Assembly (NCBI GenBank): GCA_963641445.1
Contig: CAVIBR010000002.1
Location: forward strand, 51,656-115,655
Reading direction: 5' to 3'
DNA length: 64,000 nucleotides
DNA from: Bacteroides uniformis
GTDB lineage: Bacteria > Bacillota_I > Bacilli_A > RFN20 > CAG-826
Below the pieces are notes generated by a model. The model saw nothing but the letters and a program-made list of their open reading frames with translations, was not told the DNA's origin and searched no databases. Positions 27,198 to 38,883 of the stretch are shown here, one piece after another; positions within the stretch are counted from its first letter, which is position 1, and each line of letters begins with the position of its first letter. Made by a program: the position numbers and the translations under genes.

Positions 27198-28109
27198 GTG
27201 CAATTAACCATTTATCCTTTAGATTTTGAAGAGTTCCTATATAACTCAAATAGAATCCTATATAACGTCATTAAAGATGCGTACGAGAAGAAGGCGAAAA
27301 TCGATGAATCAATACATGAATTGGCTTTGAGGCAGTTTTACGATTATTTGGTCATTGGCGGTATGCCTGAAGTCGTAAATGAATTTTTAAAAACAAAATC
27401 ATATCAATCAGCAAAAGAAATACTGATTGACCTATATGACAATTACTTAGGGGATATGGAGTTATATCAAGCTAGTCCAGAATCGATTGTTTGTTCTAAG
27501 AAAGTTTTCGAAACAGTTTATTCTCAACTCAACAAGAAGTCTAAAAACTTCAAAACGTCTTTGATTGATAAGAATCTAAAAGGAAGGGATTTGCAAACTC
27601 CTATTGATTGGCTAACGCTTGCTTTTTTGGTAAATAAATCGTCGTTAGTAAAAGAAAAAGTATCCATCCCATTAATCAGCTCAAACGAATCGCTATTTAG
27701 ATTGTATTTGTCTGATATGGGCATGTTCACATATCAAAGCAGCATTAATCCAAAAGTATTTTTATCAAACGAAGGGATAAACACGCTTAGTGGAATATTT
27801 TTTGAGAATTATGTTGCGATAGAGTTAGTAAATTATGGATATGAACTATTCTATTGGAAAGGGAAGGGCGATTCTGAATTCGAATTTGTCATCGAAAGTG
27901 AATCAAGTATCATTCCTATAGATGTTAAGAAATCAAATGGAAAACTGAACTCACTTAAGAAATATACGGAACATAACACATTGAAATACGCAGTTAAAGT
28001 ATCAAAAAACAATTACGGATTTGATGAGGAAAACAAGATTTTGACAATACCATTTTATTTCCTTCCATTTTATTTAAAAGAACTCCGTAAGAAAGAAGAA
28101 ATAGATTGA
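27198..28109 (+). pseudogene. N-terminally truncated DUF4143 AAA-ATPase paralog (the P-loop half is missing). A likely gene remnant.
   Basis: 303 aa starting at a GTG. It aligns to residues from about 125 onward of the 408/409-aa paralogs (…YPLDFEEF… versus …MPLSTKEI…; shared …YLSDMGMFTY… region) and lacks the GxxGxGKST P-loop. 16-bp direct repeats AAAAGGTGCAATTAA at 27159-27173 and 27193-27207 flank the truncation point. Confidence 0.5.
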
Positions 28110-29365: not shown

Positions 29366-30592
29366 ATGAATTACATCAGACGACAATTAGAAAAAACAGT
29401 AGAAAAATTATCAAAGCAATTTCCTGTGATTATGCTTTGTGGGCAAAGGCAAACCGGGAAATCAACAATGTTAAGACATATCGCTGAAAAAGACAGGGTA
29501 TACGTTAGTTTTGATGATAATAAAGCAAGAACATTAGCGAAAAACGACCCTGAGTTGTTTTTTGAAAGATATGGAACAAAACTAATTATTGATGAATTTC
29601 AAAGAGTTCCAGAGATTTTGTTAGAAATCAAAAAAATAGTTGATGAAAAAACATACAATGATGAGGATTCCTCAGGAATGTTTTGGTTATCGGGCTCGCA
29701 AAAATTCGTTATGATGAAAAACATTTCTGAAACATTAGCGGGTAGAGTTGCCATACTAAGCTTAATGCCTTTATCTACAAAGGAAATCAATGGGCAAGAT
29801 GAAGATGTTTTCCACCCATACATCGAAACATTAAAAAAATTAGATCCACAAAAAGTAACGCAAAGCAAGATATTCGAAAGAATATTCCAAGGCGGGCTGC
29901 CAAAGATTATTGCTAATCAAGAATTGGATAGAGATGTTTATTATTCAAGCTATATAAACACTTATATCGAAAGAGATGTATCCGCACTAGAGCAGATTGG
30001 AAAACTTGATGAATTTAGAGATTTCATCACATATATGGCCGCGAATACAGCCCAGGAATTAAAATATGAAACTATATCAAAGGTTGTTGGAGTATCTTCT
30101 CCTACCATAAAAGAATGGGTAAGCATTTTGGAACGTTCCGGAATAATATATATCTTACGTCCTTATAATAATTCAGTAAGCAAAAGATTGGTTAAAACGC
30201 CGAAATGCTATTTCATAGATACAGGATTAGCAGCGTATCTAACTTCTTGGCCAACAGCAAGAACATTAGAGAATGGAGCAGCAGCTGGCGCTTTTTATGA
30301 AACGTATGTGGTATCCGAAATACTAAAAAGCTATTTTAACAACGGAAAAGAGCCAAATATTTATTATTATCGAGACATCGATCAAAAAGAAATCGATTTA
30401 TTGATTGTAGAGGGAGATAAGATCTATCCAATTGAAATAAAAAAGAATAAATTCCCGTCAAACCCGGATAAAAATTTTAAAGCGTTGGAAAAATTCAATC
30501 TTAAAATCATGCCAGGCATAATTCTTTGTATGAGTGATCAATTAATTCCTTATAACAGAGATTGCTGGCTATGCCCTATAAGTTTGATTTGA
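29366..30592 (+). CDS. AAA+ ATPase of the DUF4143 family (paralog 3)
   Basis: 408 aa. P-loop LCGQRQTGKST. Shares …YIERDV…, …KPKLYF(S/I)DTGLAAYL… and …YYYRD…EIDL… blocks with 7516-8745. Confidence 0.7.
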   Translation: MNYIRRQLEKTVEKLSKQFPVIMLCGQRQTGKSTMLRHIAEKDRVYVSFDDNKARTLAKNDPELFFERYGTKLIIDEFQRVPEILLEIKKIVDEKTYNDEDSSGMFWLSGSQKFVMMKNISETLAGRVAILSLMPLSTKEINGQDEDVFHPYIETLKKLDPQKVTQSKIFERIFQGGLPKIIANQELDRDVYYSSYINTYIERDVSALEQIGKLDEFRDFITYMAANTAQELKYETISKVVGVSSPTIKEWVSILERSGIIYILRPYNNSVSKRLVKTPKCYFIDTGLAAYLTSWPTARTLENGAAAGAFYETYVVSEILKSYFNNGKEPNIYYYRDIDQKEIDLLIVEGDKIYPIEIKKNKFPSNPDKNFKALEKFNLKIMPGIILCMSDQLIPYNRDCWLCPISLI

Positions 30593-30674
30593 TCATCCTC
30601 ATATCAAACATCTTTATAGTTCAAAGAAAATTGGTCATTCAAAAGAAGAATCTGAAATGTTTTATTAAACACAT

Positions 30675-30790
30675 TAATCTTTACGAAATTAAAATAATCT
30701 TTCGGATTTTTAATTATTCTCTCGGAAATTGAAATAATCTTTCGGAAAATCGATTATTCTTTCGGAAAATTCCCGAAAGATTATTGGCAA
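30675..30790. repeat. Array of about five 20-bp imperfect direct repeats (consensus AATTATTCTTTCGGAAAAT) ending in one inverted copy. A repeat-rich intergenic region upstream of the zinc-ribbon/SPFH/TIR gene cluster.
   Basis: taatctttacgaaatt / aaataatctttcggatttt / taattattctctcggaaatt / gaaataatctttcggaaaat / cgattattctttcggaaaat / tcccgaaagattattgg (inverted). Contiguous, with no spacers. Confidence 0.6.
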
Positions 30791-31180: not shown

Positions 31181-32821
31181 ATGAGTAAGTTTTACATTAA
31201 ATGTCCTAATTGTGGCAAATTCCATCTAGCATCAACCGGATTATTCGCTAGCAAACATATCGATTGCGATTGCGGTTATTCGATAAGTGTCAAAAACGAC
31301 AGAATGTCTTCCACAACATGCCCTGAATGCGACAACACTGTCGTTTACGATCAAGCAAAGGCGGGCAATGCTGAATGCCCAGTTTGTCATAAGCATTTAG
31401 ACCCATTAAAAGGGAATGGCTTAGTTAGCATTCATTGTCCAACATGCAATATCCAAACTAACGTAGATAAAGCGGCAAAATATTACACTTGCCCAGTTTG
31501 CGATACTACTATTGATGTTCAAAAGCAGATCGTTAAAGAGAATGCAGCAAATAGCAAAAAGATCTCTATTATCAAATACGAAGGCCCTAAAGATGTTATT
31601 TGCTATAAATATCCAGTCGAAGACTTTATTACAGGTTCAGAATTGATTGTTCATGAATCTCAAGTCGCAGTCTTCTTCAAAGATGGTGAAGCGTTAGATA
31701 CTTTCGGACCGGGAAGGCATTTCTTAACGACTGATAGGCTTCCTTTGATTGGAAAGTTCTACAAATTAGATACAAATCAAAACGCTCAGCCTTTCCATTG
31801 TGAAATATATTTCGTAAATATGTCCACCATAATGGGCGTCAAATGGGGCACGCCAAACAAAGTAGGCTTATTTGATCCTCATTCTGGTCTTCATGTCGAT
31901 ATTGGCGCATGCGGAACATTTAACCTAGTCGTCAAAGATGCAAGGAAACTCTTATTCAAGATTGTTGGCACAAGCAATGGCCTTTTTGAAGATGACATCA
32001 TTGGCGAAGATAGATTCTCTGGCATTTTCAAAGACTTGCTTGTTAACAAAGTTAAATCAAATCTTGCAAAAACAATCAGAGAAAGCAACATCAATATCCT
32101 TGAAGTAGACGAACATATCGATGAGATATCCGATGTTTTGAAGAAAGTGGTCAATCCAACACTTGAAGAATACGGGTTATCAATAACTGAATTCTACGTT
32201 GTTAACATTCTTCTTCCTAACGATGATCCAAACTTCAAGAAAATGAAGGAACAATATGCCGAGCAATATTTGAAAGTGAGAAACGAAAACATCCTTAAAG
32301 ATGAAGCGTTAGCAAAGCAGCAAAGAAGAATGGTTGAACTTCAAACTGAACAAAATGAAGAAATAATCAGAGCCCAAGCAAAAGCTCAAGCGTATCGTTT
32401 GCAAGCTCAAGCTGAAGCCGATGAAATGAAAATGAAGGGATACACCTACCAACAAGAAACCCAAAGACAGGTTGCATTAGGTGCAGTAACGAATGCGAGT
32501 GGAGAAGGCGGAGGAGTATCCGGAACTGCTTCAAGTATGATTGATTTGGGAATTGGCCTGGGAATGATGAAGGAGGTTGCAAAAACCGTTGGTGAAACAT
32601 TAAAACCAGGACTAGAAGAAAGTAAAAACGTCATATCAGAAACAATAAGTCCTTCTTCCACTTGGGAATGCCCTGAGTGCCATGCCAAAGGGCTAACTTC
32701 TAAGTTCTGCCCAGAATGTGGAGCAAAGAAGCCAGACGAAGAATGGACTTGTCCTGAATGCCATACCGAACATATCAAAACAAAATTCTGTCCTAATTGC
32801 GGACACAAAAGAGGAGAATAA
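31181..32821 (+). CDS. Multi-zinc-ribbon protein with a central SPFH/Band-7 (Band_7_1, YdjI-like) domain and a coiled-coil region
   Basis: 546 aa. The N-terminal 120 aa carry six CxxC pairs (CPNCG, CDCG, CPECD, CPVCH, CPTCN, CPVCD). Residues about 130-330 (IIKYEGPKDVICYKYPVEDFITGSELIVHESQVAVFFKDGEALDTFGPGRHFLTTD…FHCEIYFVN…GACGTFNLVV…) match the SPFH-like Band_7_1 fold. Then a Q/A/E-rich coiled coil and a Gly-rich linker. The C-terminus has two more zinc ribbons (CPECHAKG…CPECGAK; CPECHTEH…CPNCGHK). Confidence 0.65.
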   Translation: MSKFYIKCPNCGKFHLASTGLFASKHIDCDCGYSISVKNDRMSSTTCPECDNTVVYDQAKAGNAECPVCHKHLDPLKGNGLVSIHCPTCNIQTNVDKAAKYYTCPVCDTTIDVQKQIVKENAANSKKISIIKYEGPKDVICYKYPVEDFITGSELIVHESQVAVFFKDGEALDTFGPGRHFLTTDRLPLIGKFYKLDTNQNAQPFHCEIYFVNMSTIMGVKWGTPNKVGLFDPHSGLHVDIGACGTFNLVVKDARKLLFKIVGTSNGLFEDDIIGEDRFSGIFKDLLVNKVKSNLAKTIRESNINILEVDEHIDEISDVLKKVVNPTLEEYGLSITEFYVVNILLPNDDPNFKKMKEQYAEQYLKVRNENILKDEALAKQQRRMVELQTEQNEEIIRAQAKAQAYRLQAQAEADEMKMKGYTYQQETQRQVALGAVTNASGEGGGVSGTASSMIDLGIGLGMMKEVAKTVGETLKPGLEESKNVISETISPSSTWECPECHAKGLTSKFCPECGAKKPDEEWTCPECHTEHIKTKFCPNCGHKRGE

Positions 32822-32826
32822 AAACC

Positions 32827-33525
32827 ATGGTTAAGAAAGAAACTTATATTTTCGCTGGAATTATTACGGCCTTATCTTTATTGGCGTATTCTCTTCTATT
32901 TTTCCTCATTCCATTTCCAGTAAAGGATTCTAATGGACACATATTGAATTATGTGACAACGCTTGTGCTTGCTATCACCTTTGTCTGTTCTTTCCTTTTT
33001 GGCTTGTGGAAAAGAAAAGATGTCGCAGGACTTGTTTATAGAATTCCATTAATCAAGTTGATAATCGGATTTGTTATTGCCAACGTAATCGTTTCAATCA
33101 TTGAATGTACCATTAACTCCTTCGTGCCAATGCCATTCTATGCGCCAATAATTGTTGGAATCTTTGAACTCATCTTCTTCTTCAGTTTATTTGTGTTAAA
33201 AAGACAAAATATAACTCACATCGAAAATAACGAAGATAAACAAAAAGAAATGACAAGCGTCATTAAAGAATTAAGAACAAGAGCTAACGTTATCTTCAAT
33301 AACTGCAACGATGATGTTTCAAAAGAAAATATGAAGAAAGTTGTAGACGCTCTTCAATATTCTGATCCTGTTTCTTCTAAAGCGACAATTGAAAATGATG
33401 GCAAAATTGCTTCATTGTTAAATCAATTAGAAGAAATGGTTAATGATGGAAAATCCATAACATCCGTTGATGAAATATTAAAAGCAATTAGCAAAAGAAA
33501 CATAACAGCAATCAATAACAAATAA
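32827..33525 (+). CDS. Small membrane protein (4 predicted TM helices plus a C-terminal cytoplasmic helical domain), unknown function. Start revised to the ATG at 32827.
   Basis: The ORF track starts at a TTG (32797) inside the upstream gene. The ATG at 32827 (MVKKETYIF…) is preceded by AGAGGAGAA plus 8 nt and lies 5 nt after the upstream stop. Four hydrophobic segments, then a charged tail …KELRTRANVIFNNCNDDVSKENMKKVVDALQYSD…. Confidence 0.5.
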   Translation: MVKKETYIFAGIITALSLLAYSLLFFLIPFPVKDSNGHILNYVTTLVLAITFVCSFLFGLWKRKDVAGLVYRIPLIKLIIGFVIANVIVSIIECTINSFVPMPFYAPIIVGIFELIFFFSLFVLKRQNITHIENNEDKQKEMTSVIKELRTRANVIFNNCNDDVSKENMKKVVDALQYSDPVSSKATIENDGKIASLLNQLEEMVNDGKSITSVDEILKAISKRNITAINNK

Positions 33526-33540: not shown

Positions 33541-36500
33541 ATGGCTTTATTTAAATGCAAAATGTGTGGGGGAGATCTCGTGGTCAAAGAGGGTGAGAAA
33601 GTAACCAAATGCCCCTATTGTGAGACAGCCCAAACAATCCCTAATCAAAAAGATGAACAAACAGTCAAATTAATTAACCGCGGAAATTTATTACGTAACC
33701 AAGGTGAATTCGATAAAGCGTATGGTATATTTTCCCAACTTCTAAATTCAGAAACCGAAGACGCGGAATTATATTGGAACCTTCTTCTTTGCAAATACGG
33801 CATAACATATGTCGATGATTATGATGGGAAGAAGATTCCAACCATCAATAGAATGTCACGCACCTCAATTCTTGATGATGACGATTATAAGAAAGTACTC
33901 TCTTTAGCAGATGTCGTTGCAAAAGATAATTATGTTGATGAAGCGAACAAAATAGCTAAGATTCAGGAGGGAATTTTGAAAATTGTTAATTCTGAAGAAC
34001 CATACGATGTCTTCATTTCCTACAAAGAAAGTGATGAAACAGGCGATAGAACAAGAGATTCCATTTTAGCGCAGGAAATCTACGATACTTTCACTAAAGA
34101 GGGATATCGTGTTTTTCTTTCCCGCATAACTCTTTCTAACATTATCGGAAAAGAATACGAACCATACATTTATTCTGCATTGTATTCATCAAAAATAATG
34201 TTATTGGTTTGCACGGATGAAAGTTACGTCAATTCCGTTTGGGTCAAAAATGAATGGACCAGATTCTTAGGCATGATGAAAGAGGATAAGAGTAAAACGC
34301 TTATCCCATGTTATAGAGATCTTGATCCATATGATTTGCCTAAGGAAATCAGAAACCTTCAAGGACTTGATATGTCCAAGCTTGGCTTCATCCAAGATTT
34401 AAAAACAGGCGTTTGCAAAATCCTTGGCAAAAAGAAAGCTGAGGCTGTTCCTTCTCCTACTCCAGCAAAAACGGAAAACAAGAACGAATCTCTAGATTTA
34501 GTCACCAAAATGATCAAAAGAGGATTCAGCTTCCTTGAACAAGAAAAGGGTGAACAAGCCAAAAAGATGTTTGAAGAGTCTTTGCTATATGAAGAAAGAA
34601 CCTACGCTTATTTAGGGTTACTTTGTCTTAAATACAATTGTTCAACAGTTGAAGAATTATATGCGCTTGATGATAAAAACATTGCAAACCAACCTCTTTT
34701 CAAAAAAGCTTTAAGCGTTGCTAACGAACAAGAACGAGAAACGTTAAATAACATCGTTAAAAGCATTACGGACAAAACATATAAGAAGGATCTAGCTAAA
34801 TACAATGCCGCTTTGAAATTGAAAAACGATGGCAATTATCATGACGCAATTCAAGCGTTTAATGCAATTCTAGATTTTTCCGATTCAAAGAATCAAATCA
34901 AAGAATGTGAAAATTTAATTCTAGAAGGTAAAAAAGCAATCCTTTACGAAAGACTATGCAAACAATATCAAGATAAATATTTCAAAGGCGTTTTAGAAAC
35001 GTTCCAAGAATTATATAAATTAGATAAAGATTATAAAGATTCTCGTAAATTGCAAGATGAATCCATTATCGCTTTATGCAACAATTTATTAAAAAGGAAC
35101 GATTATGTTAAAGTTCGAAAACTACTTAATGAAAATAGGTGTTTTTCCAAGGAATACATTGATGAAACATATAAAAAATGTGATCAGATTGAAAGAGAAA
35201 CTGAAAGCAAACAAGCAGAACATAAAAGAAGGCAAAACATTTATCAAGAATGTGATGTAATCAAAGAAAATGAAACGCTTTCTGACCTAGAAGCAAAATT
35301 GAACAAACTTCTTACGTGCAAGGGCGATGATTGCTATCCAGAATATACAGAGCAAAAGCTCAAAACAGCCATTAGGAAGAAAAAAGCAAAAAAAGGAATA
35401 TTCATAACTATCACCACAATGATTGTTTTAGCCGTTGGCGGAGGGATTCTCGCTAATGTAATCGTTAGCAAGATCAATGACAAAAAAGAGGCGGAGAGAT
35501 TATCTTCAATCGAAGAAAGACAATCTCAAGAACTATCTTCATTAAAGAAAAAATACGCCGCACCTATATTCAATTTCGAAGAAAAAACGATGACGTATGG
35601 CGTTTATCCACAAACTGTCGTTGATGATGAATCACTCATTGGCAAATTAAACGATTTAACAGGAGATTCTCAACATGAAAATGAATTTTATTATTACAAC
35701 GAAGAATATTATTATCCGGTAAAAGCAAATCCGAATAAGAGTAACTACGTTTTTAGCAATGGATCAAATATCATTAGTTCCACAAAATATTGGTTCAAAG
35801 TAGAGCCAATAAAATGGAAGATGATAAATGCTAGCGAAGACAGCATCACTTTAACAAGTACGGCATTGGTAACTAGACAGGCTTTTGCTGCCTCAACATA
35901 TGCCAATTCAGATGCAAGGAAATGGATTAATGGAGGATTTTATAACAAAGCTTTTTGTTTAGATGATTCCTTAATTCTTACTAGTGAGGTTGATAATAGT
36001 CATTCGATGCAAGATACATGTGGTAGCAAATATTACGAAGACAATACAAACGATAAGTTATATCTTTTAAGTTACCAAGATATTTATCAAAGAAAATACG
36101 AACTATCAACCGATACGACTGATCCTTATAACACCGGTTGCAAAATAACGGATTACATTAGAGCGTGTGGCGCATATTGCGACCTAAAAACTGGCTATGA
36201 ATATAATGGTGATTATTGGACGCGTTCCCTTTGCTCATCATCGGGCAATCCATCATGCGTAAATTCAAATGACACAATTAATCATAGCGTAGGTAATCGA
36301 AACTATAATGCATGCCTTAGACCATGCATGAAAATATCACACAAATGGACAGATGAAGAAAAAGCGTTAGCAAATAAGAACAATAATCAATTATCAGAGG
36401 GAAAGGCCGAGATTAAAGAAAAATATGGCAAACCTGTCGTAGATTTAGCTAATAACACGGTGAAATATGGCATATATCCACAAACTCTTGTTTCCGATGA

Positions 36501-37158
36501 AGCGTTAACAACTAAGTTAGATTCATCCTCTATTTACGATAGCGCTAACGGATGGTCTTACTATAACGGCGAATATTATAAGAAGTTTAAAGCTAACCCA
36601 TATGATAGTTCTTATACATACGATAACGATGAAACAATCGTAAGCGGAACATATTATTGGTTTAAATGTGAGCAAGTCGAATGGAAGATAATGAAAACGG
36701 GCGATGATGGCACATATCAACTAATAACTTCAAAACTGATAGATTGCAGATACTATTCATCAACACCAATGGATGATAGTTTTGCCAATTCATCAATAAG
36801 GACATGGCTTAACGGAACTTTTTATAATCAGATTTTTCTTGATCAGTCATATGTTCAAGAAACAAGCGATGAAAATAAATTTTATTTTTTAAGTGAGGAC
36901 GAATTATGCAGCTCAGATTATGGTTTTTCCTCCGATAATGCTTCGCGCTATTGCAAGACAACAGACTACGCTAGAGCGAATTATGCTTGTATTTATACTG
37001 ATGATGAAACTAAATATAACGGAATGTATTGGACTAGGACATATTATAAAGGTGGAGGCGGAGTTTTTTATGTCATCAAAAACGGATTTAACGATAGAGA
37101 CTCTGAATCAAGCATTATTTGCATTCGTCCATGCGTGAATATCAAAATCTCCGAATAA
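33541..37158 (+). CDS. Single-pass membrane TIR-domain protein: N-terminal zinc ribbon, TPR-like repeats, TIR domain, TPR-like region, one TM helix, then two extracellular DUF1566/Fib_succ_major-like lectin-type modules
   Basis: 1205 aa. Zinc ribbon CKMCGG…CPYCET. TIR: …PYDVFISYKESDETGDRTRDSILAQEIYDTFTKEGYRVFLSRITLSNIIGKEYEPYIYSALYSSKIMLLVCTDESYVNSVWVKNEWTRFLGM (DVFISY start, alphaC-like SxWxxNEW with Glu). TM at about aa 620, GIFITITTMIVLAVGGGILANVIV, preceded by KKKAKKG (N-in). The C-terminal 560 aa contain two repeated modules, each ending Y/MYWTRS/T…C(L/I)RPC(M/V)(K/N)I. RBS CAGGAG. Confidence 0.7.
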   Translation: MALFKCKMCGGDLVVKEGEKVTKCPYCETAQTIPNQKDEQTVKLINRGNLLRNQGEFDKAYGIFSQLLNSETEDAELYWNLLLCKYGITYVDDYDGKKIPTINRMSRTSILDDDDYKKVLSLADVVAKDNYVDEANKIAKIQEGILKIVNSEEPYDVFISYKESDETGDRTRDSILAQEIYDTFTKEGYRVFLSRITLSNIIGKEYEPYIYSALYSSKIMLLVCTDESYVNSVWVKNEWTRFLGMMKEDKSKTLIPCYRDLDPYDLPKEIRNLQGLDMSKLGFIQDLKTGVCKILGKKKAEAVPSPTPAKTENKNESLDLVTKMIKRGFSFLEQEKGEQAKKMFEESLLYEERTYAYLGLLCLKYNCSTVEELYALDDKNIANQPLFKKALSVANEQERETLNNIVKSITDKTYKKDLAKYNAALKLKNDGNYHDAIQAFNAILDFSDSKNQIKECENLILEGKKAILYERLCKQYQDKYFKGVLETFQELYKLDKDYKDSRKLQDESIIALCNNLLKRNDYVKVRKLLNENRCFSKEYIDETYKKCDQIERETESKQAEHKRRQNIYQECDVIKENETLSDLEAKLNKLLTCKGDDCYPEYTEQKLKTAIRKKKAKKGIFITITTMIVLAVGGGILANVIVSKINDKKEAERLSSIEERQSQELSSLKKKYAAPIFNFEEKTMTYGVYPQTVVDDESLIGKLNDLTGDSQHENEFYYYNEEYYYPVKANPNKSNYVFSNGSNIISSTKYWFKVEPIKWKMINASEDSITLTSTALVTRQAFAASTYANSDARKWINGGFYNKAFCLDDSLILTSEVDNSHSMQDTCGSKYYEDNTNDKLYLLSYQDIYQRKYELSTDTTDPYNTGCKITDYIRACGAYCDLKTGYEYNGDYWTRSLCSSSGNPSCVNSNDTINHSVGNRNYNACLRPCMKISHKWTDEEKALANKNNNQLSEGKAEIKEKYGKPVVDLANNTVKYGIYPQTLVSDEALTTKLDSSSIYDSANGWSYYNGEYYKKFKANPYDSSYTYDNDETIVSGTYYWFKCEQVEWKIMKTGDDGTYQLITSKLIDCRYYSSTPMDDSFANSSIRTWLNGTFYNQIFLDQSYVQETSDENKFYFLSEDELCSSDYGFSSDNASRYCKTTDYARANYACIYTDDETKYNGMYWTRTYYKGGGGVFYVIKNGFNDRDSESSIICIRPCVNIKISE

Positions 37159-37221: not shown

Positions 37222-38883
37222 TTAACTTTGTTTTTCACATTTAATAGAAACTTTGTTTTTATAGAAACTAACACCAAACAAAAGGGTATTCTTAATACCT
37301 AGATTTTTTAATTCTTGATCGTATCCTTGCGTTTTTATTTGTTTTATAGCATTCTCTGTTGAATTTTCTAATCTCGATTCAATTGTTCTAGTTTTTAAAG
37401 ATTTAACTTCAACCACAAATCCTAAATCTTTGTTATCTTTTGGTATGACTACTATATCCGCTCTGCCACTACCAGCATTGAATTCGTTTTTGATGTATGC
37501 GTCATCGAATATTACGGCTAAAGTCGTAGATAACAATATTTGGTAGTTTTTCTCTAAATTCATCTCATATGATGAGAAAGTAGACAAGAGATATTTTTCC
37601 ATTAAGTCCTTAAGATTAGAAGAATCTCCATCTTGGAAGGCCTTCTTCAATTTATAGACTAGAGGAATTTGATCACTCCTAAGATATCTGGAACGGATTT
37701 CTCTTCTGAACACTGCTTTGATTTCTTTGTTAGGTATAACAAGGCTGTAAAATTCTTCGTAGTTATCCGAGATTGATAAGTAACCACTAGCTAAAAGATA
37801 AGAACATACCGAAATAAACGAATCGTCTAAATCCTTATAGGAAAGAGCTATATCTATCTCGGTATTAATCTTCTTATCAGATAATAAAGGCAATAAGGAA
37901 TTTAAACGTTCTAAGCTAAGTATCTTTCCTAAAGTTTTGCTTTCGCCAGTATTGTTCCAATACATTCCATCTTCTCCCCCGTTTTGAATAAAGCTCAAAA
38001 CAGATAATGGATTGAATATTTTAGAATTTCCAAACTTATATCCTCCATACCAGGAGCAGACATCATCATATCTCTCAGAATAGTCATAATATTCAAGCAT
38101 ATCTTTGACTTCATTTTCGGTGAAGCCAAATCCTTCATCCATATTCTTAGAAAGAATTGAGTTGGTAACTAAATTATTAACCCCGGAGAATAATGATTCT
38201 TTTGCGATTTGCAGTATTCCAGTTATCACGGCTAAACGAAGAGATTGATTGGTCTTTAAGCTTTCACCGAAATATTGTTTGAAGAACATGATCGTTTCAT
38301 CATAGAAACCATAATCAAAAGAATAATGAACAGGAGAATCATATTCATCAATTAAGATGATGACCTTTTTATTAGTCGTTTTATATAGCATCTCAGACAA
38401 TCTTAGCAAGGAACTAGAAAGATCGTTTATCGTAGAATCCTTAGCGACAATTGATTGAAAATATTCTTTTTCTTCAGAATTTAATGTCGATGAAGAAAGA
38501 ATATAGGCATGGCGTTGATACTCTTTGCTCATACATTCTTTCATTTTTTCAATCAATGTTTCAAAATCCATTCCTATTACATTTTTTAAATTGATATGTA
38601 TAAGCGGGTATTTTTGGAATTCATTTTCAATAACTTCTTTGTTATTCCATATTTTTTTACCTTTGAAATATTGACTTTTATCGGTTTCGTCTTTTTCAAA
38701 AAACTCTTGAAGCATTGATAACATCAAAGTTTTGCCAAATCTTCTAGGACGAGTAAAAAGTAAGCATGTTCCAGTAGGAAATTTTGAAATAGTCTCAATA
38801 ATGTTTGTTTTGTCTACGTAATAACATTCATTCGATACTGTCTCGAAGAATTCAATTCCTAATGGTACAGGTTTCTTTTCCAT
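37222..38883 (-). CDS. AAA-ATPase_like N-terminal domain plus C-terminal PD-(D/E)XK nuclease-like domain protein (DUF1703-type predicted AAA-ATPase)
   Basis: 553 aa. Hallmark N-terminal region …ECYYVDKTNIIETISKF…LFTRPRRFGKTLMLSMLQEFF… and Walker-B-like ILIDEYDSPV. C-terminal …NAGSGRADIVVIPKDNKDLGFVVEVKSLK… matches the PD-(D/E)XK (D…EVK) core of DUF1703. RBS CAGGAG. Convergent with the TIR gene. Confidence 0.65.
   Translation of the reverse strand: MEKKPVPLGIEFFETVSNECYYVDKTNIIETISKFPTGTCLLFTRPRRFGKTLMLSMLQEFFEKDETDKSQYFKGKKIWNNKEVIENEFQKYPLIHINLKNVIGMDFETLIEKMKECMSKEYQRHAYILSSSTLNSEEKEYFQSIVAKDSTINDLSSSLLRLSEMLYKTTNKKVIILIDEYDSPVHYSFDYGFYDETIMFFKQYFGESLKTNQSLRLAVITGILQIAKESLFSGVNNLVTNSILSKNMDEGFGFTENEVKDMLEYYDYSERYDDVCSWYGGYKFGNSKIFNPLSVLSFIQNGGEDGMYWNNTGESKTLGKILSLERLNSLLPLLSDKKINTEIDIALSYKDLDDSFISVCSYLLASGYLSISDNYEEFYSLVIPNKEIKAVFRREIRSRYLRSDQIPLVYKLKKAFQDGDSSNLKDLMEKYLLSTFSSYEMNLEKNYQILLSTTLAVIFDDAYIKNEFNAGSGRADIVVIPKDNKDLGFVVEVKSLKTRTIESRLENSTENAIKQIKTQGYDQELKNLGIKNTLLFGVSFYKNKVSIKCEKQS

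Follow-up and report, generated by a model that had tools for sequence, protein, structure and literature searches.

What does a soluble SPFH protein studded with zinc ribbons do beside a small membrane protein and a TIR-domain protein? The question is raised by a locus in a 64,000-nt stretch of contig CAVIBR010000002.1 (assembly GCA_963641445.1), here called the window. The gene at issue (31181..32821, + strand) encodes 546 amino acids (aa). It starts with an ATG, has an AAAGG Shine-Dalgarno-like sequence upstream, and its product contains a Pfam Band_7_1 domain and has more than 100 full-length homologs. It is present in the list of open reading frames (ORFs) with exactly the coordinates given by a first-pass annotation of the DNA, which also proposed that the protein acts with its two neighbors. 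The first neighbor gene (32827..33525, + strand) follows the SPFH stop codon after 5 nt, has the ribosome binding site AGAGGAG and encodes a protein with four transmembrane (TM) helices. The annotation had rightly named this protein as a neighbor, with one residue too many (233 instead of 232 aa). The second neighbor gene (33541..37158, + strand) follows after another 15 nt and encodes a 1205-aa TIR protein. Because the intergenic gaps are only 5 and 15 nt, the sequence suggests that the three genes form one operon.

What SPFH proteins do apart from "organizing" membranes is incompletely understood, and the bacterial ones whose client is known mostly pair with a protease or with PspA. Here the SPFH gene is genetically locked to genes for putative TIR-domain enzymes, which are hallmark innate-immunity effectors in bacteria, plants and animals.

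A Conserved Trio of Genes

Is the grouping of these genes more than an accident of one genome? This was assessed in 80 species-level loci (L018-L097), mostly from gut and rumen Firmicutes, with jackhmmer profiles run on mechanically called six-frame ORFs. A homolog of the 4-TM protein is encoded in 67 of 71 evaluable loci, and in 61 its gene is directly adjacent to the SPFH gene. A word-seeded search with the 4-TM protein had returned only five relatives before local jackhmmer found these homologs, owing to the rapid divergence of the family. TIR genes occur in 64 of 67 evaluable loci (~95%), with one to five paralogs per locus, and every TIR gene runs in the same direction as the SPFH gene (102/102). 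Their position is far from fixed: 25 loci have them upstream of the SPFH gene, 24 downstream and 15 on both sides. This shuffled gene order argues against simple inherited synteny, and the genomic comparison backs the link to both neighbors suspected in the first-pass annotation.

The same trio is found, in differing order and in unrelated neighborhoods, with homologs of 98%, 83% and 49-55% identity. One homologous locus is part of a mobile element that also carries relaxase and resolvase genes. All-against-all clustering of the 80 loci identified only the SPFH, 4-TM and TIR families as widely conserved, plus one optional member. The latter is a ribbon-helix-helix (RHH)-like protein of ~65 aa with the motif S.R.PKDM...D..A..TGRTRNEI, which heads the operon in 27 of the 80 loci (for example L038 5825-6025, L079 9742-9996 and L082 9795-9989). 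It is probably an autoregulator. A six-frame search did not find it in the window. Judged from these gene patterns, we favor, with moderate confidence, the view that the SPFH and 4-TM genes are the invariant core of a conserved operon and the TIR proteins its variable members.

This module appears to be undescribed so far. No description of an SPFH, Band-7, stomatin or flotillin protein combined with TIR-domain defense was found in the full-text literature searched, the coverage of which is incomplete. One apparent match, in a phage shock protein (PSP) paper, concerns a "Tir" that is the unrelated CesT/Tir chaperone.

The Zinc-Ribbon SPFH Protein

The first-pass annotation had read the middle of the protein as SPFH-like and proposed a comparison with SPFH/Band_7 profiles. 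The match is strong. Residues 149-348 (31625..32224, + strand) match Band_7_1 (PF13421) with E=1.4e-39 and 136.3 bits against a cutoff of 24, covering profile positions 11-198 of 211. An AlphaFold2 monomer prediction made from a 41-sequence alignment is confident in this SPFH core (predicted local distance difference test, pLDDT, 80-90) and in a long A/Q/E-rich helix that follows it (residues 350-418, 32228..32434, + strand; block-mean pLDDT ~77-86). This helix is the coiled coil of the annotation, and it matches the wall helix of SPFH cages. When the model was compared with the PDB by Foldseek, the top 42 matches were all SPFH proteins of the cage-forming kind, including stomatin (9oh9), prohibitin (8rrh), HflK/C (7vhq), QmcA (8z5g) and flotillin (9l3g), with E=1e-8 to 1e-5. 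Full-length cage subunits (human stomatin, prohibitin, HflK/C, QmcA and flotillin) align over ~300 columns that include the wall helix. The confident core and helix, together with these alignments to ring-forming members, support an SPFH fold in an "SPFH plus wall helix" layout. A Gly-rich, low-complexity linker then follows (residues 434-492, 32480..32656, + strand), which is predicted to be disordered (pLDDT <50).

How would such a protein reach the membrane? The N-terminal TM helix or hairpin anchor of flotillin, HflK/C and stomatin is absent from the SPFH protein, and three zinc ribbons stand in its place. The protein was described earlier as soluble-looking and free of TM segments. That description holds, since its best 19-residue Kyte-Doolittle window scores only 1.04.

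The N-terminal module spans residues 1-112 (31181..31516, + strand). Its cysteine pairs are 8/11+29/31, 47/50+66/69 and 86/89+104/107, which makes five CPxC motifs and one CxC (C29-D-C31) arranged as three ribbons. Six N-terminal CxxC pairs had been claimed. Six cysteine pairs are indeed present in the first 107 residues, but one of them is this CxC. At the other end, two ribbons (residues 495-543, 32663..32809, + strand; Pfam DZR) are made from four CPxC motifs within residues 497-540 and carry FCPNCG. Both of the C-terminal strings quoted in the annotation as complete ribbons, CPECHAKGLTSKFCPECGAK (residues 497-516) and CPECHTEHIKTKFCPNCGHK (residues 524-543), were located. The whole protein therefore has nine CxxC motifs and one CxC, forming five ribbons, and the earlier figure of eight CxxC motifs was a miscount. 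The ribbons appear as pairs of beta-hairpins in the AlphaFold2 model. The 12 N-terminal and 8 C-terminal ribbon cysteines are all invariant in 41 homologs with identity down to ~50%. Chance is excluded as an explanation because of this invariance and because 10,000 shuffles of the protein gave a mean of 0.88 CxxC motifs and a maximum of 5.

The alignment shows that the C-terminal tandem unit, W-x-CPxC-x8-FCPxCG-xK, varies in copy number from 2 to 6 across homologs. In 29 loci with full flanks, SPFH proteins with more C-terminal ribbons (range 2-5) go with more partner genes (Spearman rho=0.55, p=0.002, uncorrected for phylogeny). This exploratory correlation would fit docking of ribbons to partners.

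Relation to YdjI/SamI and Other SPFH Systems

Sequence comparison indicates that the closest characterized relative of the SPFH protein is YdjI of B. subtilis, recently renamed SamI. The two proteins share the Band_7_1 family (PF13421), with 25% identity over 216 aa of the SPFH domain (E=2e-15). The B. subtilis ydj operon sequence used here was taken from a metagenome contig located via a published ydjG primer. Both proteins are soluble, with the domain order SPFH, low-complexity linker and C-terminal FCPNCG ribbon. A low-complexity region, the counterpart of the Gly-rich linker, has been described in YdjI/SamI (PMC8581546; bioRxiv 10.64898/2026.02.06.704340). However, the window protein adds the triple N-terminal ribbons, a 70-residue helix and a duplicated C-terminal ribbon. 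Taken together, these comparisons make it reasonably likely that it is a soluble scaffold of the stomatin/flotillin type and of the YdjI/SamI class, specialized by its unique triple N-terminal ribbons and its variable C-terminal ribbon array.

The likeness extends to gene context, up to a point. ydjI lies in the operon pspA-ydjGHI, or pspA-samGHI, next to the genes of the membrane proteins on which YdjI depends; YdjG and YdjH bring YdjI to the membrane, and YdjI then recruits PspA (PMC8581546; bioRxiv 10.64898/2026.02.06.704340). Loss of SamI leads to unbalanced SamG/SamH signaling, and SamI is reported to regulate SamGH signal perception (bioRxiv 10.64898/2026.02.06.704340). The partners in the window are different: a 4-TM protein and a TIR protein instead of YdjG (two zinc ribbons, NTF2 and a TM segment), YdjH (a TPM domain) and PspA. 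A fusion of YdjG and YdjI with a YdjH-like partner was considered and rejected; YdjI is homologous, but YdjG shares nothing beyond CPNCG. The 4-TM protein was likewise rejected as a YdjH (E=0.08), which is a TPM_phosphatase protein. PspA is absent from the Pfam-annotated neighborhoods of the homologs that were looked up. Since the YdjG, YdjH and PspA partners are missing, the SPFH protein is YdjI-like in layout but stands outside the YdjGHI/PspA system.

What of the classic cage-forming complexes, HflK/C-FtsH, QmcA-YbbJ, stomatin, prohibitin and flotillin? The predicted SPFH and wall-helix fold is shared with them, as is the pairing of the SPFH gene with a small membrane-protein gene in an operon. 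The window protein differs from them in having neither a TM nor a hairpin anchor, in a partner that is not NfeD-like and in its proposed clients, which are TIR proteins and not a protease.

The Membrane Partner

The 232-aa partner consists of four TM helices and a helical cytoplasmic tail of ~95 aa with a conserved YSDPVS motif. AlphaFold2 predicts the four helices and a confident all-helical tail (pLDDT ~85). The protein has no Pfam, NCBIfam or PADLOC match, and the model has no significant PDB neighbor. The usual partner of SPFH proteins is NfeD. In SPFH-NfeD operons the NfeD partner is a membrane protein with a C-terminal beta-barrel (OB-fold) domain. This identity was rejected on the basis of Pfam, which gave no NfeD match, the PDB comparison and the tail, which is all-helical instead of a beta-barrel.

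The TIR Partners

The TIR partner in the window is built, according to Pfam, from a zinc ribbon, TPR, TIR_2, a helical/TPR region, one TM helix and two DUF6273 domains. TIR_2 occupies residues 157-280 (34009..34380, + strand; E=3.2e-14, 53.9 bits against a cutoff of 28) and contains a putative catalytic residue, Glu238 (34252-34254, + strand), in the motif WVKNEW. E238 is invariant in 98 of 98 TIR domains. It lines up with the Glu of WCLMEL, a motif of the plant L6 TIR, and we take that Glu to be the catalytic residue of TIR NADases. Because of this invariance and alignment, the TIR domain is probably an enzyme. The single TM helix (residues 620-638, 35398..35454, + strand; hydropathy 2.29) is preceded by the basic stretch RKKKAKKG and followed by a predicted extracellular tail (35455..37155, + strand) with DUF6273 in two stretches (Pfam E=8e-20). 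By the positive-inside rule we infer an N-in/C-out topology, with the TIR domain in the cytoplasm and the DUF6273 domains outside. DUF6273 has been described as C-type-lectin-like in phage receptor-binding proteins (PMC10743442).

The paralogs elsewhere all share a head of ~300 residues composed of zinc ribbon, TPR and TIR, and vary behind it. Among 92 TIR paralogs that are 450 aa or longer, a simple hydropathy threshold predicts 39 soluble proteins, 32 with one TM helix and 21 with 2-4 TM helices at the end. The single-TM paralogs mostly carry a sizeable ectodomain after the helix, and Pfam found RCC1 in 16, DUF6273 in 11 and BspA-type leucine-rich repeats (LRR) in 2 of the 32 post-TM tails scanned. 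Calling the neighbor a TM-TIR protein is correct for the window, with its TIR_2 domain and one TM helix, but does not describe the family, in which ~40% are predicted to be soluble and ~20% to have 2-4 TM helices.

Some paralogs lack the TIR domain altogether. These retain the zinc-ribbon/TPR part of the head and carry RCC1 repeats or BspA-type LRR (LRR_5) instead. They are encoded at L046 11870-13549, L051 11861-13537, L053 4675-6354, L054 12628-14217, L092 11433-13049 and L094 6034-7233. Several lie between the SPFH and 4-TM genes, and in L092 the only partner is TIR-less. A different kind of variation is seen in a 98%-identical strain. In both of its independent assemblies the TIR gene is split, so that one part (582 aa) comprises the cytoplasmic TIR region and the other (635 aa) the TM helix and DUF6273 (L001 ~14085 and L002 ~4611). 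The cause is a 1-nt difference relative to the window at ~35266, where the window reads AAAGAAAA and the relatives have an A7 run. The window copy is intact.

Two further ideas about these proteins were considered. The first was that the 4-TM protein might be fused to TIR proteins in Rosetta-stone fashion, prompted by L022 and L062, which lack a 4-TM gene; hmmsearch gave E ~3 and so no support. The second, rejected for this window, was diversification of the DUF6273 ectodomain by a diversity-generating retroelement. Between 26 and 42 kb the only repeat is an internal domain duplication, and no template/variable pair is present.

How do these proteins compare with known TIR systems? Like Thoeris and other bacterial TIR defenses, they have a TIR_2 domain with a conserved putative catalytic Glu. 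Thoeris can also have several ThsB TIR paralogs per locus, as can the loci of this family. However, the window module has no gene for a ThsA-like SIR2, SLOG or Macro effector, the NCBIfam Thoeris-III ThcB4 model scores only 28.7 bits against a cutoff of 220, and PADLOC gives no match. Moreover, the TIR proteins here carry sensor-like tails of their own and are linked to an SPFH/4-TM pair. Animal Toll-like receptors offer an analogy only. The TIR protein of the window and 32 of the 92 paralogs of at least 450 aa combine a ligand-binding ectodomain with one TM helix and a TIR domain in the cytoplasm. The orientation is inverted, though, with the TIR domain N-terminal and the ectodomain C-terminal, and the enzyme-type Glu is kept. 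There is no evidence for common descent of the architecture.

A Possible Mechanism

How might the three proteins work together? The SPFH domain and long helix would oligomerize into a ring or cage at the cytoplasmic face of the membrane, as other SPFH proteins do. The ring would be docked on the membrane by the 4-TM partner, since the SPFH protein itself lacks a TM segment. The N-terminal ribbons would then occupy the membrane-proximal rim, where other SPFH proteins have their membrane anchor, and the C-terminal ribbons would sit on a flexible tether of ~60 residues. TIR proteins would be recruited to this platform by their zinc-ribbon/TPR heads. The platform would either hold the TIR domains apart or concentrate them, and so control their self-association and NAD+ cleavage. 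The trigger would be a disturbance reported by the sensor tail (an RCC1, DUF6273 or LRR ectodomain, a multi-TM bundle or a soluble propeller) or by the membrane itself. Three features lead to this model: the SPFH protein is anchorless, the 4-TM gene is a near-invariant neighbor, and the zinc-ribbon/TPR head is the only feature common to the variable partners. A gating role is plausible because SamI, also an SPFH protein, restrains the signaling of its membrane partners. We therefore consider it fairly probable, by homology and analogy, that an SPFH/4-TM ring organizes or gates the TIR enzymes, with the oligomer, its docking, head binding, NADase gating and a role in defense each remaining conjectural steps. 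If the ring does gate TIR oligomerization, it would provide a concrete, testable mechanism of client regulation for the Band_7_1/YdjI class.

What would such a device be for? Its purpose is probably anti-phage or abortive-infection defense, or envelope surveillance. Defense is the leading reading because of the putative catalytic Glu, the diversified paralogous sensors, the optional RHH regulator, the occurrence on a mobile element and an upstream boundary that varies between 98%-identical strains. The support for it is modest. A more elaborate version can be put forward only tentatively: the module may be a so far undescribed TIR immune system, associated with the membrane and widespread among gut and rumen Firmicutes, in which a 4-TM-docked SPFH cage corrals arrays of TIR receptors and frees their NADase activity upon phage attack or envelope damage. 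The diversified tails of these receptors would survey the cell surface or the cytoplasm, and many of the receptors would have the inverted Toll-like layout. This would be the first bacterial link between SPFH microdomain scaffolds and TIR signaling, and a TIR system new to science in bacteria that abound in gut and rumen. It would also supply naturally occurring TIR proteins built like single-pass receptors (ectodomain, TM, TIR), the sensor domains of which are swappable. An operon of three genes is small enough for direct testing.

Several points weigh against the proposed mechanism and purpose. Three loci with full flanks (L031, L077 and L092) have the SPFH/4-TM pair and no TIR gene. With ~40% of the TIR paralogs predicted to be soluble, a corral acting strictly within the membrane cannot be the full explanation. 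The AlphaFold2 model of the whole SPFH protein is only moderate (pLDDT 67.6). PADLOC models match none of the three proteins, so a known defense system was rejected and a defense role has no experimental precedent. Among 109 genes immediately flanking the module in the 80 species, mobile-element or defense genes (integrases, resolvases, Schlafen/AlbA_2, pAgo/SIR2, AbiLi and DRT) are only a minority and many are housekeeping genes, and any enrichment has to be read without a baseline. Finally, the mechanism as a whole is derived from homology and gene context.

Alternative Explanations

Perhaps the module senses the cell surface and has nothing to do with immunity. In this scenario ectodomains bind environmental, host or cell-wall ligands, the TIR domain makes a nucleotide signal or adjusts NAD+ metabolism, and the SPFH/4-TM pair organizes receptor clusters. 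RCC1, C-lectin-like DUF6273 and BspA-LRR tails are indeed typical Firmicute surface-binding domains, and many loci lie among housekeeping genes. The reported control of SamGH signal perception by SamI would be a comparable organizer role, and NAD-derived metabolites are made by gut-bacterial TIRs (PMC9092222). Yet a signaling module of this sort has no conserved downstream receiver or transcription factor here except the optional RHH protein. The diversified paralogs within a locus, the mobile-element location and the variable upstream boundary between 98%-identical strains fit conflict systems better. Non-immune surface sensing is unlikely on these grounds, although it remains a serious rival.

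What if the zinc ribbons bind nucleic acid? The SPFH protein itself would then sense invading DNA or RNA at the membrane, the site of phage genome entry, leaving the TIR proteins as pure effectors. Five ribbons with variable copy number, weakly resembling the Cas12f TNB domain, the Pol II large-subunit ribbon and the L32 ribbon, might suggest as much. But these resemblances fall below the gathering cutoffs and reflect the generic shape of a CPxC ribbon. Zinc ribbons make protein-protein contacts as frequently as nucleic-acid contacts. Moreover, the sensor-like parts of the module are the variable tails of the TIR proteins, and ribbon count tracks the number of partner proteins. A nucleic-acid sensor thus appears improbable.

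An ordinary YdjI-like membrane-stress protein working with PspA, with the TIR genes adjacent for no reason, was already disfavored and is very improbable. The Pfam family and domain order are those of YdjI, but no homolog of YdjG or YdjH was found, PspA is missing from the annotated neighborhoods, the trio and the RHH protein are the only families conserved in the 80 loci, and the TIR linkage (64 of 67) persists despite shuffled order. A classical regulator of a protease or channel, like HflK/C-FtsH or stomatin-NfeD, can hardly be expected despite the structural likeness to HflK/C and QmcA, because the conserved module contains no protease, channel or NfeD gene and the 4-TM tail is all-helical with no beta-barrel.

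Distribution of the Family

Full-length homologs of the SPFH protein are numerous. Each of the 120 matches listed covers 99% or more of the query, out of 5,947 significant Band_7_1-type matches. Contigs of GTDB genomes, one per species, encode a relative in at least 568 of 600 candidate stretches, and nearly all of the best 80 of these align from residue 1 to ~546. The hosts of the best 80 are mostly gut and rumen Clostridia (Lachnospiraceae, Oscillospiraceae, Ruminococcus, Blautia and Roseburia) and Bacilli/Erysipelotrichales. Mobile carriage on plasmids or phages was considered and rejected for the full-length architecture, which occurs in none of 72,556 plasmids or 50,697 phages; only short SPFH forms do. 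One such short plasmid homolog without the triple-ribbon module has no TIR gene nearby.

The N-terminal ribbon module was also followed on its own. An exhaustive HMMER search with residues 1-128 gave only 228 clusters at 50% identity, and the match is N-terminal in nearly all of the 150 matches listed. Of ten that were scanned by Pfam, eight have Band_7_1, including seven of the eight variants of ~840-1080 aa. The long variants include P0238, P0242, P0245, P0248 and P0264 (~1040-1080 aa) and P0243 and P0246 (~840-860 aa). P0234 (1051 aa) and P0137 (432 aa) match the module and have no Band_7_1 match by Pfam.

The family is otherwise Firmicute, and the module is also found in L018, L026 and L095, which are labeled Sodaliphilus (84% identity to the window protein), Bacteroidales and Spirochaetales. 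The labels of bins of metagenome-assembled genomes may be wrong, as with "Sodaliphilus" for an 84%-identical locus. The non-Firmicute labels could reflect either mis-binning or horizontal transfer.

Flanking Regions of the Window

Upstream of the SPFH gene lies an array of 20-nt tandem units, five direct and one inverted (30673..30785). The unit is A[AT]TA[AT]TCT[TC]TCGGAAAAT, and the inverted copy forms a palindrome. The array lies ~400-500 nt ahead of the SPFH start. The 98%-identical relatives L001 and L002 retain it despite having a different gene farther upstream, and its conservation exceeds that of the 240 nt on its right. Synteny with the relatives breaks exactly at its left edge, which places the array at the left edge of the block shared with the 98%-identical relative. 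Its candidate roles are an operator array and an island boundary.

The gene on the far side of the array (29366-30592, + strand) encodes an AAA_14/DUF4143 ATPase that matches the PADLOC candidate PDC-S01 (E=4e-110). In L001 a Schlafen/AlbA_2 gene takes its place. The module is also flanked by a truncated DUF4143 paralog (27198-28109, + strand) and, on the other side, by a gene for a predicted AAA-ATPase_like and PDDEXK_9 nuclease protein (37222-38883, - strand). A promoter and terminator scan gave fewer promoter-like sites than shuffled sequences and no convincing + strand terminator. Rfam matched nothing at the locus; its only match in the window is the bacterial small signal recognition particle (SRP) RNA RF00169 (54090-54174, - strand, 58 bits).

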